DNA of 34,852 nucleotides from a virus: IMG/VR virus record IMGVR_UViG_3300026985_000012, positions 1-34,852 of that record; one strand, written 5' to 3'. Below, piece by piece: positions 1,529 through 34,852 of the stretch; positions within the stretch are counted from its first letter, which is position 1, and the number at the start of each line of letters is the position of its first letter. Under the pieces are notes generated by a model. The model was not told where the DNA came from and ran no database searches. It saw nothing but the letters and a program-made list of their open reading frames with translations. Both the position numbers and the translations under genes were made by a program.

Positions 1529-1704
1529 GCCTCTCGCAGTACGGGCGCGTCGAGTTCCCGTTCGGTGATCGACACCTCATCGGCGACGCCGTCGACTTCG
1601 AACCCGCCGGTGATGTCTCCGGACCCGACGGCCTCCTGGTCGTCGACGTCGAGGGGCTCACCTACCGCGTCGAGGAGTCACGAGTCGAGCGGTTGGACCA
1701 GTAG
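1525..1704 (+). CDS. Hypothetical protein (59 aa), stop codon inside the tRNA
   Basis: Below the ORF-track cutoff; ATGA overlap with upstream gene; MSLSQYGRVEFPFGDRHLIGDAVDFEPAGDVSGPDGLLVVDVEGLTYRVEESRVERLDQ; TAG at 1702-1704. Confidence 0.7.
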   Translation: MSLSQYGRVEFPFGDRHLIGDAVDFEPAGDVSGPDGLLVVDVEGLTYRVEESRVERLDQ

Positions 1705-1768
1705 CTCAGTCTGGGAGAGCACGACGCTGAAGCCGTCGCGTGCCGCGGTTCGAATCCGCGCTGGTCCA
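1695..1768 (+). tRNA. trnF: tRNA-Phe (GAA), CCA not encoded
   Basis: Complete cloverleaf: acceptor GGACCAG/CTGGTCC + A73, D-stem GCTC/GAGC with GG, anticodon stem CGACG/CGTCG, loop CT-GAA-GC (anticodon 1729-1731), T-arm CGCGG-TTCGAAT-CCGCG. Confidence 0.95.
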
Positions 1769-1930
1769 TGTCCCGTGGGGCGCGCCTTCTCCGGAAGGCC
1801 AGGTCACCCCCACGGGAGTGCTGAGGCACACGAGCGGCCGGCGAGCCTCTCGCACTGACGCCGGTCTATCACGAGCGGAGGGCGTTCCATGTTCGGTTGT
1901 AGTTACGCAAACCCTCAAGTCCGGTCGCCT

Positions 1931-21850: not shown

Positions 21851-21913
21851 CGACCGAGGACCGATGAGCGTCCGCTCCGCGTGGCGGGCGTGAGGCTACG
21901 AGCGCACTCCTTC

Positions 21914-22573
21914 ATGACTGCACCTATCGACACTCTGAGTCGCATCGCTATCCAACACGCCTCCCTCATCGCCCCGGTCGTGGCGATCGTGTTGCTCGTC
22001 GCCGCCCGGCGTCACCTCGGTGGGTGGCCCGACCTGTGGCGAGCTCGGCGTGCCGTCCTGCCGGTCGTGGATCGCCTCGCCGACGGCGACTACGATGACG
22101 AGCTCGATGTCGTCGACGACCGCGTCGGCGTCGACCTCGAGGCCGCGGCCGAGGCGCTCCCCGAGAAGACCGGACTGCCGCTCCAGGCGCGGGAGTTCGT
22201 CGGGACGATCGACGCGGCTCCCGCCGAGGTGCGTGAGGAGCTCCAGTCGATGCCGCGCGTCTACCCGAACACGCTCGCGAGCATCCAGTACGAGGTCGTC
22301 GACGGCGACCGCATCTGGGAGGTTGGCTCCTACGCATACCGGCCGGAAGGCTTTCTGGGTGGCTGGCAGTATCACGTCCGGCTCACCCCGACGCAGGACG
22401 GTCGGACGCGACTCTGGGCGCACTACGAGCGATCGGCGTGGCGCTATCCCGTGCGGCACTACAACGGCGAAGGATGGGACGCCGATCACGGTGTTCGAGA
22501 GGTGGCGTCGTGGTTCGCCAGTGACACGCGGTTCGCGCCGAGCGATCGTGCGGTAGCTATCATCGACATCTAG
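21914..22573 (+). CDS. Membrane-anchored hypothetical protein, last late gene
   Basis: N-terminal TM (LIAPVVAIVLLVAA); WQYHVRL, LWAHYE, PVRHY motifs; ATG 21914 preferred over GTG 21881. Confidence 0.75.
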   Translation: MTAPIDTLSRIAIQHASLIAPVVAIVLLVAARRHLGGWPDLWRARRAVLPVVDRLADGDYDDELDVVDDRVGVDLEAAAEALPEKTGLPLQAREFVGTIDAAPAEVREELQSMPRVYPNTLASIQYEVVDGDRIWEVGSYAYRPEGFLGGWQYHVRLTPTQDGRTRLWAHYERSAWRYPVRHYNGEGWDADHGVREVASWFASDTRFAPSDRAVAIIDI

Positions 22574-22586
22574 GAGTCTCTTCTCA

Positions 22587-23098
22587 CAGACGGCACCACT
22601 TCCGCCGGTCTAGTGGTCTTTTTACGACTGGGAACACAAGTGTCGTCTGCCGGGATACTCGTAGTTATCGTACGAGAAACCGGCACATAGTGGTAGGCAC
22701 CAATACCACGGCTAGGTGATCGGGGAAACCCGTCAACTGAAACCGGTGTGAGCGCCTACGACTCTCACATCCTTTCGCGGTTCTTCAGAAGATGAGTATG
22801 AATGCCCTGGCTCTCGCCAGGGGCCGGAGCTGCCTACGCCCCGGTGGTTCGTGACCGCAGGTACGAGAGCACATAGGCCCCGAAGACGACGAGGAGCCCG
22901 TAGTGCCGCAGGCCTGCGGCAACGAGAGCGGTACCACCAATCGTTCCGGCCACGGCGGTATTCCGCACCGGTGGGAGGTCGACTCTCAACATTCCTTTCT
23001 CGCCGGGTCGGCGTCAGCCGCACCGACTTGCGGGCGCTTTGACACGACCGCTACCATCGGTAGGGGGTGGTCCCCCTAAAAGGTCCGCCACCGTGTCA
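22587..23098. ncRNA. Hairpin-dense non-coding region, candidate structured RNA
   Basis: At least eight stems including CGGG-GAAA-CCCG, CCCTGGC-TCTC-GCCAGGG, an 18-bp palindrome and TAGGGGG-TGGT-CCCCCTA; no halophile-like ORF. Confidence 0.4.
22595..22623 (+). terminator. Candidate late-operon terminator
   Basis: ACCACT/AGTGGT stem followed by TTTTT (22619-22623), ~45 nt after the last late stop codon. Confidence 0.5.
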
Positions 23099-23124
23099 CT
23101 TTGTCTACGCCGGCCGATCACCCG

Positions 23125-23358
23125 TCACGCGAAATCGCCAAGCGCGCCCTGGCCGTCCGCCCGCGTCGTGTCCTGTCCGCGGCGGACCTCCTGACACTCG
23201 GCGCAGAGGAAGTCGCCGGCGATCGTCGTGTGCTCGGTCGCCGTCCCGCAGCGCTCGCAGTGGCCGTCGGCGCAGCTGGTGCAACGCATCTCGCCGTCGA
23301 CCTCGACGAGGACGGCGCCGTTCGATCCGACGCCGCACTCGATACACTCAGTGCTCAT
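23125..23358 (-). CDS. Double zinc-finger protein with C-terminal PIP-box-like motif
   Basis: CIEC, CTSC, CERC, CAEC; ends QGALGDFA. Confidence 0.8.
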   Translation of the reverse strand: MSTECIECGVGSNGAVLVEVDGEMRCTSCADGHCERCGTATEHTTIAGDFLCAECQEVRRGQDTTRADGQGALGDFA

Positions 23359-23587
23359 CGAACTCCCTCCCCATCACGAAGACATCGTAGCCAGCGACCA
23401 GCATCGCGATCCCGAGGGCGGTGAGTAAGAGTTCCTCTCCGTAGCTCCTCGCAGCCGCCGAGAACAGCAGGAGCACGAGGCCGAGCGCGGACAGCTGAAA
23501 GAGCCGGACGAGTAGCCGGTGGACGTACGACACGATGTCCGAGATGACATCGGCCGAGCCGGCGTCGCGATCAGTACACTCAGCCAT
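23348..23587 (-). CDS. Small membrane protein (two TM helices)
   Basis: LLVRLFQLSALGLVLLLFSAAA and LLLTALGIAMLVAGYDVFV. Confidence 0.75.
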   Translation of the reverse strand: MAECTDRDAGSADVISDIVSYVHRLLVRLFQLSALGLVLLLFSAAARSYGEELLLTALGIAMLVAGYDVFVMGREFDEH

Positions 23588-28744: not shown

Positions 28745-29296
28745 ATGACCATGAGTACGTTAGACAACCGGGGTCAAAAATCCGGCCCCAACGATGAGCG
28801 GACCGAATCCAAGTACGTCCGTCGAGAGATGAGCTCGTCCGCAGTCCCGTATATGCGGACTGAAGTCAACAACTACGGCCACGTCGTGTGGCGCCAGAAG
28901 ACATCGAATCAGGAGAATATTTCTGTTCCTGTCCACCGGCTACTACTCGTCGCTGAATACGGCGTTGATGCCGTCGTCGGGAAACACGTCCACCACAAGA
29001 ACGAGATTCCATTCGACAACCGTATCGAGAATTTAGAGCTACTCGATCCCGAGGAGCACAGCCGACACCACAGCGAAGGATCCGACATCAGCGATGTTGA
29101 GCTCCTCGCCGATTTGCGAGCTGGTGCTGCTGTTCTCGACCGGCGTCCGAAGAAGTGTGACGTCAACAACTGGGGGAGCTACCACAGTTCGACTTACTAT
29201 AGACGGTTCGACGGCGACTGGGATGAGATCTGCTCACTGGCAGGTATCGACGAGGGCGGAAACATCGACGGCGACTGGTGGAGGGAGCAGGAATGA
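28745..29296 (+). CDS. HNH endonuclease with C-terminal homing-endonuclease-associated repeat
   Basis: VHRLLL...HVHHKNEIPFDNRIENLELL...EH..HH; C-terminal ELLADL....L.R.P......WGSYHSSTYYRRF..W...C..AG. Confidence 0.85.
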   Translation: MTMSTLDNRGQKSGPNDERTESKYVRREMSSSAVPYMRTEVNNYGHVVWRQKTSNQENISVPVHRLLLVAEYGVDAVVGKHVHHKNEIPFDNRIENLELLDPEEHSRHHSEGSDISDVELLADLRAGAAVLDRRPKKCDVNNWGSYHSSTYYRRFDGDWDEICSLAGIDEGGNIDGDWWREQE

Positions 29297-31090: not shown

Positions 31091-32027
31091 CGAGCACTCG
31101 GCGACGACCGACGTCGTCACGCTCGCGAAGACCGCCGACGGGCTCGGCGAGTCGGTCGCCCGGCGCCTCGAGGACCACGGCATCGAGACGGTCGCGGACA
31201 TCCTGATCGCCGACGAGGGTGCGCTCACGGACGTGCCGTACGTCTCCGACCTGCGCGCCGACACGCTGCGCGAGGTCGCCAGCCGCATCGTCGACGACGA
31301 GCCGGCACCGGAGCCGCGCGACATCGACCTGGAGGCGACCGAGAGCGTGGTGAGCGAGACCGCGATCCCGCTGTCGGTGCGGCGCGGAGAGGCGGTTCTC
31401 GCGAAGAGCGCTGGGAAGGGGTCGAAAGACATCTACCACACGCGGGCCTGCCACGTCGTTCGTAGCTGCGACGGCCTAATCGAGCGCGAGCCACGCTACG
31501 TCGAAGATCGTGACTACGAGGAGTGCCAGTTCTGCGCAGACCCAGAGACCGTAGCTCGGAACAGTATGAAGTCGTCACAGTCGGATGCTCCCGACCCGCT
31601 CGTCGACCCACGCGAGGTCGTTCTCGAAGCGACGATCGGCGAGAAGCTGAATCTCACGATGGCCGACCGTGACGGCTACGCGTGTGCATGGGCTGTCATC
31701 GACGTCGACGAGCCGACGACGTGGGAGACGCCGACCGGCGACACCTGGCAAACGCGCCGGATCCGGATCTCCCAGAAGATGAACGGCGAGGAGCACTACT
31801 CGGAGTGTGACCTCGTCGTCGCCGCGGACGAGGTCCGGCTAGAAGACCCGCCCGTGAAGCGACAGAGCGCGCAGCCGAACGCGCCCAGCTGGCGTCTCGA
31901 GTCGGTCGGGGCCGTCGGTCGCGTCGCCCCGTCGACACACGCGCAGCTGCAGGGCCGGCTCGAAGACCAGGACGCGAAGCCCGAGGGCGACGACTCTTGG
32001 CGGAAGTACCAGCGGGGTGAGGCATGA
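31080..32027 (+). CDS. HhH-domain and zinc-motif protein
   Basis: DGLGESVARRLEDHGIETVADIL (HhH); YHTRAC ... CQFC; ATG 31080. Confidence 0.75.
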   Translation: MPSDEHSATTDVVTLAKTADGLGESVARRLEDHGIETVADILIADEGALTDVPYVSDLRADTLREVASRIVDDEPAPEPRDIDLEATESVVSETAIPLSVRRGEAVLAKSAGKGSKDIYHTRACHVVRSCDGLIEREPRYVEDRDYEECQFCADPETVARNSMKSSQSDAPDPLVDPREVVLEATIGEKLNLTMADRDGYACAWAVIDVDEPTTWETPTGDTWQTRRIRISQKMNGEEHYSECDLVVAADEVRLEDPPVKRQSAQPNAPSWRLESVGAVGRVAPSTHAQLQGRLEDQDAKPEGDDSWRKYQRGEA

Positions 32028-33592: not shown

Positions 33593-34852
33593 TCAGTCCA
33601 ACAGCAGCTGGCTGAGGATCGGGTCATCACGGAGCCGGTCGCGAGCGGCGATGACGTCCTCGGCCTCGACGTCCAGGTCGTCGCGCGCAGCGGCGACGGC
33701 GTCCTCGACCATCTCGTCGTCGAGCTCGTCGACGCGCTTCGCCGTCTCGGCGTCGAGGGCCGTCCCGCACCACATGCAGAGGTCGTTATCGGCGGGCGTC
33801 TCCCGGTCACACCGGTGGCAGACGATGGGGGCGCGGACTTCGTCGTCTTCCTCGAGGTCGACGTCGATCCCGTGCATGGCCGCGAACTTCGCCTCCTGCG
33901 TCTCCCCAGAGAACTTGGCGACGTAGCGGGAGATGACAGGCGACCCACGGGCGCGGCCCTGTCGGTCCTCGATGAACGCCTGGGACTTCTCCTGCTGGGA
34001 GAGCCAGTAGGCGTTCGACTTCCGGAAGTTGGTCGGCGTCACGGGCAGATCGACGTCGGCTCGCCCAGCCGCCTCCTTGAAGATCTTCAAGAAGAGCTGG
34101 TAGCTGACGCGCTTCGGCTTGTTGAGGTGGCTCCAGACGAAGTCGTCGCCCTCGCCGGGGTGGCTGGCCTGCCAGCGCGAGACCCACGGGATCGACCGGA
34201 TGAGGTGGACGTCGTGTTCGCCACGCTTCCCGTCGACGCGGACTTTGACGGAGTGCTCCGAGTCGGAGATCTGGTCGAGCGTGAGGTCGTAGAGCTCACC
34301 GCCACGGAACCCACCCTCGAACTGCAGGGCGATGAGCGCCTTGTCGCGGTCGTTGTGACAGGCGTCGATCATCGGCCGGACGTGCGTGTCCCAGTCGAGC
34401 ATGTCGGCCTCGTCGGGCTCGGGCTGGTAGTCACGCGTCGTCTGCGTGGAGATCCAGTCGTGCGTGTCGGGGATCTCCTCGCCGCGGGTGGTGTGTTTGG
34501 CGAGCATCCGGAAGGCGACGCGATAGTCCCGGTTGGTCTCCTGGCTCCCCTCCTCGATGTCGTAGGTGTCGTGGATCCAGCGGACGATGACCTTCGCGGC
34601 GTCTTTGGCGGCGTCGAAGTCCTCGTCGTCGCGCTCGGGGAGGATGGTCTCGACGAGCGCAGTGTCAGCGTGCTCGCTGGCTCGCGTGTTGTGCCGGAGG
34701 AGCTTCTCGTGTCGGTGCCAGCCGTACTCTTCGCGACGGAGCTTCAGCTCGTCGGAGAACGCGAGCAGGAGGTCACGATCGGCGTCACTCCCACCGCGAT
34801 CGCCGGCCTGGAGCTTCTCGCGGAGCGTGTCGACGGCGTCCTTCCCAGCCAT
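33593..34852 (-). CDS. int: Tyrosine integrase with C-terminal zinc ribbon
   Basis: GGFRGGEL (R), DGKRG (K), TPTNFRKS (R), SRYV (Y); CHRC...CMWC ribbon. Confidence 0.93.
   Translation of the reverse strand: MAGKDAVDTLREKLQAGDRGGSDADRDLLLAFSDELKLRREEYGWHRHEKLLRHNTRASEHADTALVETILPERDDEDFDAAKDAAKVIVRWIHDTYDIEEGSQETNRDYRVAFRMLAKHTTRGEEIPDTHDWISTQTTRDYQPEPDEADMLDWDTHVRPMIDACHNDRDKALIALQFEGGFRGGELYDLTLDQISDSEHSVKVRVDGKRGEHDVHLIRSIPWVSRWQASHPGEGDDFVWSHLNKPKRVSYQLFLKIFKEAAGRADVDLPVTPTNFRKSNAYWLSQQEKSQAFIEDRQGRARGSPVISRYVAKFSGETQEAKFAAMHGIDVDLEEDDEVRAPIVCHRCDRETPADNDLCMWCGTALDAETAKRVDELDDEMVEDAVAAARDDLDVEAEDVIAARDRLRDDPILSQLLLD

Follow-up and report, generated by a model that had tools for sequence, protein, structure and literature searches.

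A convergent small membrane-protein gene and candidate antisense RNA in haloarchaeal proviruses

Beyond the tail genes of a haloarchaeal provirus we identified a cassette which we interpret, with moderate confidence, as a convergent pair composed of the mRNA of a small membrane protein and an antisense-acting RNA of ~140 nt that would mask the start codon of this mRNA. The interpretation draws on a comparison of the region across metagenomic relatives, in which a short gene on the minus strand is followed by a conserved, structured element containing a second copy of the gene's own start region. At ~450 nt, the cassette is a concrete candidate with a clear prediction, namely that positions 22759-22779 pair with 22967-23002. 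All coordinates refer to the IMG/VR provirus record of 34,852 nt that was analysed over its whole length and is called the window here.

Provirus setting and distribution of the cassette

The record has an estimated completeness of 82%. Its terminase, portal and tail genes share 64-78% DNA identity with those of the haloarchaeal siphoviruses CGphi46, BJ1 and Humcor1 (Graaviviridae) and of phiH and PhiCh1, and a tyrosine integrase is encoded at its right end (33593-34852, minus strand). The integrase has weak, sub-threshold C-terminal zinc-ribbon matches (DUF7575/DZR), and an HNH homing-endonuclease-like gene with an HNH repeat (PF13392, PF18780) is located at 28745-29296. Near the left record end lies a tRNA-Phe (GAA) with 62 bits in Rfam, which may be virus-encoded or mark an attachment site; it is the sole Rfam pass in the whole window (1695-1768), and ARAGORN likewise reported this one tRNA-Phe in the window (1694-1769) and no tRNA or tmRNA in the gap studied here.

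This gap spans 551 nt (22574-23124) between the last plus-strand late gene (21881-22573; 230 aa, phrog_6788) and a minus-strand zinc-finger gene (23125-23358; 77 aa). The 77-aa protein has weak FYVE, FPG/IleRS and DksA-like zinc-finger matches, and its gene overlaps by 11 nt the preceding gene (both within 23125-23587), which encodes a 79-aa protein that looks like a two-helix membrane protein.

A first-pass annotation made from the letters of the window alone had described most of the gap as the largest non-coding gap of the genome, filled by a single hairpin array that could act as a viral ncRNA. All the stems it listed are present, at or within 1-2 nt of where it had placed them, and the impression of a folded region held up against dinucleotide shuffles, with z = -3.2 for the plus and -2.4 for the minus strand of the gap. 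It had also recognised no known RNA family, in agreement with Rfam, where nothing reached the gathering threshold in the gap and the best matches within 22400-23300 had 14-17 bits (E > 1). An Atlas feature search gave sub-threshold matches only, and sigma-70 and intrinsic-terminator scans are not informative for archaea. The gap is not non-coding, however, as positions 22834-22992 of its minus strand encode a 52-aa ORF under purifying selection, and instead of forming one array the hairpins belong to at least two convergent units and to promoter and terminator DNA. What survives of the proposed ncRNA is an element at ~22649-22790, whereas about a third of the array is coding and the rest is made up of the leader, promoter and 3' hairpin of the other strand.

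All homologues stem from a large protein collection and its short metagenome contigs, and they represent seven lineages only: A (the window, L010 and L011), B (L012), C (L013 and L014), D (L016-L018), E (L021 and L022), F (L023) and G (L024 and L025). The entire gap, beyond the ORF alone, aligns with these metagenomic relatives. On every contig that extends into the downstream flank (found for all lineages but B), the small gene and a homologue of the 230-aa late gene converge; in lineage D, an extra gene of 221 aa is inserted between cassette and late gene (L016:1797-2462), divergent from the putative small RNA. The left flank of the cassette is variable, judging from the genes that precede the small gene on the lineage-C contig L015, where a 64-aa acidic and a 51-aa four-cysteine (zinc-ribbon-like) protein replace the zinc-finger gene (L015:46-434). 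On L023, the cassette adjoins a gene for a 659-aa HNH-repeat protein.

The cassette is accessory and present in a subset of Graaviviridae-like haloarchaeal proviruses. Neither the protein profile nor a covariance model of the element (R1) found a copy in the complete relatives CGphi46, Humcor1, BJ1, G001 and G002. In the complete related provirus G002 (L009), both flanking genes are present and only ~60 nt apart, and in blastn searches against phage records only the flanking late gene was conserved in CGphi46, Humcor1 and BJ1. Protein-guided scans of viral, metagenome and genome contig collections, using the 52-aa protein or the family alignment, gave no confirmed loci, and exact-pattern scans of contig collections for the invariant RNA motif and the leader motif found nothing. 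A locus in G001 (31505-31596, minus strand; L026:1501-1592) contains the same 12-nt GAAA hairpin as the element, followed by a second hairpin with an A5 loop. It scored 13.7 bits with R1 (E ~0.09), with no homologue of the small ORF and no late gene nearby, and was rejected as a true member because it shares the 12-nt hairpin and nothing else; the hairpin could be there by chance or represent a shared RNA module.

The small membrane-protein gene and its mRNA

The small ORF (22834-22992, minus strand) encodes a hydrophobic protein of 52 aa with a predicted two-helix hairpin. Homologues in the large protein collection (P0002-P0007, P0009 and P0010) are 45-88% identical to it, and across the seven metagenomic lineages the ORF has zero indels and pairwise dN/dS values of 0.18-0.54; on this basis the ORF is protein-coding and under purifying selection. 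Variable columns are distributed as 19/15/29 over the three codon positions, third positions being the most variable. AlphaFold2, run with the family alignment, placed helices at residues 8-25 and 29-51 (pLDDT 78), the second of which is the conserved hydrophobic one, while the first is only weakly hydrophobic in lineages E-G. With 50-52 aa and GRAVY values of 0.4-1.2, the peptide family falls within the small (<60 aa) and hydrophobic range that is used as a criterion for type I toxins. No matching family was found in Pfam, PHROG or PADLOC, and a profile search of 1.84 billion representatives yielded two weak matches outside the query's own cluster, one of them the 50-aa family member P0007. 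A perfect 18-nt palindrome (22904-22921), for which the first-pass annotation had considered protein binding, is part of this ORF, is disrupted in the closest relatives and is taken to be a chance occurrence within coding sequence.

The protein would add a new family of small membrane proteins, encoded where the tail module ends; in bacterial tailed phages, this region often contains the genes for lysis. Its size and helices are compatible with a holin and the gene lies just past the tail genes, yet it is on the opposite strand and has its own putative promoter; no lysin was found nearby and the 52-aa protein has no PHROG holin match. We know of no lysis gene that has so far been identified in archaeal tailed viruses.

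The putative promoter contains a TATA-like box (23075-23083, minus strand). Haloarchaeal promoters have their TATA box centred near -27, and from this geometry the mRNA would start at 23051/23052, ~27 nt past the box, and carry a leader of 60 nt (22993-23052, minus strand). In the window and four further lineages (B, E, F and G), the first 28 nt of the leader are identical and a T-rich box precedes this conserved start by 28-29 nt. RNAalifold predicts two stem-loops in the leader, one at the 5' terminus (23030-23051) and a second at 23007-23027, the latter being the GTCGG/CCGAC stem of the earlier annotation. Contig L010 has a different leader sequence in which the 5' stem is nevertheless formed. 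The TATA-like box may also end the operon of the upstream zinc-finger gene; a T4 box that possibly terminates this operon lies in the same place. The inverted repeat TGACACG/CGTGTCA (23040-23098), part of the formerly proposed array, is present in the window, where it covers the promoter and the first bases of the mRNA, but it is not kept in the relatives.

At the other end of the gene, a GC-rich hairpin of 7 bp (22805-22822, minus strand; the previously noted CCCTGGC stem) begins 11 nt past the stop codon. All lineages have a hairpin at this position, with the sequence replaced in E-G. In group 1 of the homologues its loops are of the GNRA type on the minus strand, and two independent substitutions (lineages C and D) create U.G pairs on the minus and C.A mismatches on the plus strand. 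These GNRA loops and minus-only wobbles assign the hairpin to the mRNA, of which it putatively marks the 3' end or which it may stabilise. The small-protein mRNA is therefore predicted to be structured at both its 5' and 3' ends.

A conserved structured element downstream of the gene

Past the hairpin lies the element that would specify the candidate small RNA (22649-22790, plus strand; ~140 nt, with both ends deduced from sequence features). Identity over 22640-22780 amounts to 90-91% with the closest relatives (86-88% for the ORF) and 63-75% with lineages B and C, and its Jukes-Cantor divergence is 0.25-0.74 of the synonymous divergence of the neighbouring ORF. As the element diverges more slowly than the synonymous sites of the ORF, it must be under constraint. 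This constraint is not that of a coding sequence: none of the indel lengths in the element (1, 2, 4 and 14 nt) is divisible by three, the mini-ORFs of different lineages use different frames across an invariant 11-nt motif that surrounds the GAAA hairpin, and a 1-nt deletion in the window turns a 19-codon mini-ORF of the relatives into ATG-TGA. The deletion affects the downstream copy of the start region (copy 2, see below), and mini-ORFs starting from copy 2 were rejected as coding, since their lengths and frames vary between lineages. The region at ~22649-22790 is thus very probably a conserved, structured, non-coding, RNA-like element.

In the window, the element folds with z = -3.2 on the plus strand, and a core of ~150 nt beats shuffles in ten homologues, with a mean z of about -2.2 for the plus and about -1.6 for the minus strand. 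The predicted plus-strand fold comprises a 5' hairpin (22648-22685), with which the candidate RNA begins, and a long-range helix (22693-22698 with 22754-22759) that encloses an invariant GAAA-tetraloop hairpin (22721-22732); the bases complementary to the start region lie in the 3' tail, beyond the long-range helix. The covariance model R1 scored 97.5 bits at the element and had no other match in the window. In group 1, RNAalifold found few covarying pairs on either strand, and structure alone therefore does not decide the strand. In group 2, compensatory changes are evident: the helix flanking the GAAA hairpin changes four of its five pairs between lineages E/F and G with pairing kept, and the extension of the hairpin itself has two compensatory pairs. 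A further kind of co-variation, that of copy 2 with the start region, is described below.

The available strand evidence modestly favours the plus strand and is suggestive, not decisive. On shared helices, 24 cells contain wobble pairs that only the plus strand allows and 5 contain wobbles restricted to the minus strand, corresponding to ~12 and 4 independent events, a count that is partly circular because some of the helices were predicted on the plus strand. At the GAAA hairpin, for which the first-pass annotation had preferred the plus strand from its GNRA loop, L010 and L023 have U.G or G.U variants, whose minus-strand counterparts would not pair. A second GNRA hairpin is seen on the plus strand of group 2 and includes a wobble in lineage G. 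Moreover, the plus strand carries a T5 run, the usual archaeal termination signal, directly 3' of the segment complementary to the start region in four of the seven lineages (C, E, F and G); the remaining three have no clean T-run, with T4 in L010 and T/C-rich stretches in the others at this position. Fold z-scores are better on the plus strand in six of the seven lineages. Taken together, wobbles, GNRA loops, T5 runs and a conserved TATA-like box upstream lend mild support to the earlier preference.

A promoter for the candidate RNA might be found at the end of the late operon (22595-22624, plus strand), where a 9-nt motif (22595-22603) conserved in lineages A-D is accompanied by a local hairpin (22596-22616) and a T5-A box (22619-22624), with constant spacing between motif and box in the same four lineages. 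The box is located ~27 nt upstream of 22649, the first base of the first hairpin, and motif and box together suggest that the RNA starts near this base. The T5-A box could be the terminator of the late operon, a TATA box, or both. In lineage D, motif and T/A box are kept even though the element is not beside the late gene, which argues for a promoter of the RNA's own.

A repeat of the start region that co-varies with it

The translation-initiation region of the small gene (copy 1; 22967-23002, minus strand, with the start codon at 22990-22992) is the predicted antisense target. Copy 2 is a direct repeat of this region, first found as repeats D2, D5 and D8, and its reverse complement forms the anti-TIR segment of the candidate RNA (22742-22779, plus strand), followed by a T-rich stretch (22780-22786). 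Copy 2 begins 43-57 nt past the stop codon in most lineages and 87 nt past it in B, where there is an insertion. In no lineage does the start region have a better local match in the DNA downstream.

Copy 2 co-varies with the start region of its own lineage. The start regions diverge strongly between lineages, sharing on average 9.4 of 23 positions, and in an ATG-anchored, gapless comparison copy 2 shares a mean of 14.7 of 23 positions with its own copy 1 versus 8.9 with those of other lineages. In a 7x7 matrix of alignment scores, the cognate combination is best in all seven columns and in six of the seven rows, and the identity assignment is the unique best of 5040 permutations for alignment scores and duplex energies alike. 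Predicted cognate duplexes have -28 to -40 kcal/mol in narrow windows and are best in every row and column, while energies from wide windows are dominated by unspecific GC pairing; for 22736-22789 with 22962-23018, the predicted duplex has -50 kcal/mol. A single-base difference between lineages A and B in the first codons is found in copy 1 and copy 2 alike. In B and L011, the copies have lost their similarity upstream of the ATG and ~14 nt of pairing are left.

Two copies in the same sense cannot pair with each other, so that the simplest reason for their co-variation would be an RNA from the opposite strand across copy 2 that pairs with copy 1. In a scan of the window, the start region ranked ~8th-10th among 13,924 windows as a partner of the 3' part of this RNA, with -43.1 compared to -44.9 at the best unrelated site. 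In such a GC-rich genome, the start region cannot be told from other sites by pairing energy alone, and specificity rests on the co-variation. Sequences complementary to the start region within the mRNA itself, as well as complementarity to the leader further downstream, were looked for and proved inconsistent between lineages.

Proposed mechanism and alternative explanations

We propose that a minus-strand promoter near 23079 drives a short mRNA with the structured 60-nt leader, the 52-aa gene and the 3' hairpin, while a structured small RNA would be made convergently from the plus strand, from ~22649 to ~22790. The 3' third of this RNA, as the reverse complement of the start-region repeat, would pair with the start codon and its flanks; such pairing would block translation of the 52-aa protein and possibly trigger decay of its mRNA. 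The logic of the cassette looks like that of a bacterial type I toxin-antitoxin module, and if the peptide were toxic or otherwise active, it might function in provirus maintenance, exclusion or the timing of lysis.

The same observations could be accommodated differently if the element were transcribed from the minus strand as a structured 3' UTR of the small-protein mRNA. Its hairpins would then stabilise or terminate the transcript, and the repeat would be a relic of a partial tandem duplication, its copies held alike by gene conversion, or a decoy in cis for a factor that binds the start region. Read-through into the element is plausible, as there is no strong minus-strand T-run between the ORF hairpin and the element. 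The minus strand also beats shuffles (mean z about -1.6) and is preferred clearly in lineage C and marginally in L010, four wobble events favour it, and further short similarities between the ORF and its downstream DNA point to an origin by duplication. What makes a 3' UTR unlikely in our view is the co-variation, for which a same-sense copy, unable to pair, offers no simple mechanistic reason; gene conversion of 15-35 nt would have to recur in seven lineages, or a binding factor would have to co-evolve. Plus-strand wobbles, GNRA loops and T5 runs would also be left unexplained.

Antisense control might do without a separate RNA gene if plus-strand transcripts of the late (tail-gene) operon carried the anti-start sequence in their 3' untranslated tail and thereby silenced the small protein in the lytic phase. 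The conserved arrangement, convergent to the late gene wherever the flank is present (all lineages except B), would suit such a tail, as would the short distance of ~75 nt between late stop codon and element in lineages A-C and the short, perhaps leaky T5 stretch at 22619-22623. We nevertheless regard it as rather improbable given that lineage D keeps motif and T/A box despite an intervening 221-aa gene on the opposite strand, and that in lineage E the late gene is followed by a T5 run and then by a separate TATA-like box (T4 in lineage G). Very improbable, finally, is that the region acts as DNA, be it an origin, a packaging or recombination site or a set of protein-binding palindromes, or that it is a functionless, decaying remnant. 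It does contain several inverted repeats, including the perfect 18-nt palindrome and the 59-nt nested repeat at 23040-23098, and the direct repeats flanking the ORF could mediate its deletion. Both of these inverted repeats are unconserved, however, the palindrome moreover being part of an ORF under selection, and strand-asymmetric wobbles and GNRA loops point to RNA. The replication origin offered by the first-pass annotation finds no counterpart in the region, which has a GC content of 0.65, no iterons, no AT-rich unwinding stretch, no shift in GC skew and repeats that are two-copy short matches only; besides, an essential origin could not be missing from complete relatives, five of which lack the cassette. 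Neutral decay is excluded by conservation below the synonymous rate.

Comparison with known systems

Bacterial plasmids and prophages commonly carry type I toxin-antitoxin modules, and the convergent pair that we favour has its closest architectural parallels there. In the par locus of plasmid pAD1 from Enterococcus faecalis (Fst / RNA I - RNA II), the genes for peptide and RNA converge with a hairpin between them, direct repeats transcribed in opposite directions make the RNA complementary to the translation-initiation site of the toxin, and the toxin mRNA has a 5' stem-loop (PMC7472228). The provirus cassette resembles par/Fst in its small hydrophobic peptide, putatively convergent genes, intervening hairpin, repeat-based complementarity, predicted 5' stem-loops of the mRNA and location on a mobile element. 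In contrast, there is no sequence similarity in peptide or RNA, and the peptide has two helices and lacks the PXXXG and tryptophan features of Fst. The candidate RNA is also longer (~140 nt versus ~40 nt in par), and the intervening hairpin is apparently confined to the mRNA, whereas that of par is a shared bidirectional terminator. Unlike par, the cassette resides in an archaeal virus with TATA-type promoters and T-run termination, and its pairing is predicted. Membership in the Fst/Ldr family was rejected, as there is neither a Pfam match nor motif similarity and the likeness is architectural only.

A membrane peptide on a prophage combined with a convergent antisense RNA is likewise found in bsrG/SR4 and txpA/RatA of Bacillus subtilis and in CD0977.1/RCd11-type modules of Clostridioides difficile phiCD630-1. 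The prophage type I modules of C. difficile reportedly contribute to the maintenance of the element. In these prophage modules complementarity arises from overlap of the 3' ends of the transcripts, whereas in the cassette the strongest conserved signal is a complementarity that would act in trans on the start codon by way of the repeat.

A 2025 paper lists type I modules from three bacterial phyla only, and according to a June 2026 preprint on SSV1, no type I system had yet been discovered in Archaea (bioRxiv 10.64898/2026.06.17.732947). The same preprint proposes that an antisense small RNA to a putative toxin (a291 / T3E) of this Saccharolobus fusellovirus is antitoxin-like (bioRxiv 10.64898/2026.06.17.732947). 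T3E, cis-antisense within a 291-aa ORF, is backed by transcript data and lacks comparative support, whereas the cassette, known from sequence alone, combines a 52-aa hydrophobic peptide with a repeat-based anti-start segment and its co-variation. Among the 12 top-ranked matches of our literature search there was no relevant paper on a type I toxin in haloarchaeal genera. We tentatively suggest, while regarding it as doubtful, that the cassette is the first bona fide archaeal type I toxin-antitoxin family, in which a provirus membrane peptide is silenced by a convergent RNA through repeat-encoded start-codon complementarity, and which serves maintenance, abortive infection or the exclusion of competing viruses and evolved independently of par/Fst. 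Even without toxicity, comparative genomics would here have yielded a virus-encoded small RNA of Archaea together with an identified, albeit predicted, target, which is rare.

The Halorubrum virus BJ1 has a different small gene in the same genomic position: ORF3 encodes a strongly hydrophobic protein of 37 aa and is convergent to the homologue of the late gene. Homology to the 52-aa family was not detectable and, by eye, its start region is not clearly repeated; ORF3 may be an analogous small membrane-protein moron. In the BJ1 record (1838-2093, L004), ORF3, with a GRAVY of 1.04, is followed by a T7 run/terminator and two hairpins.
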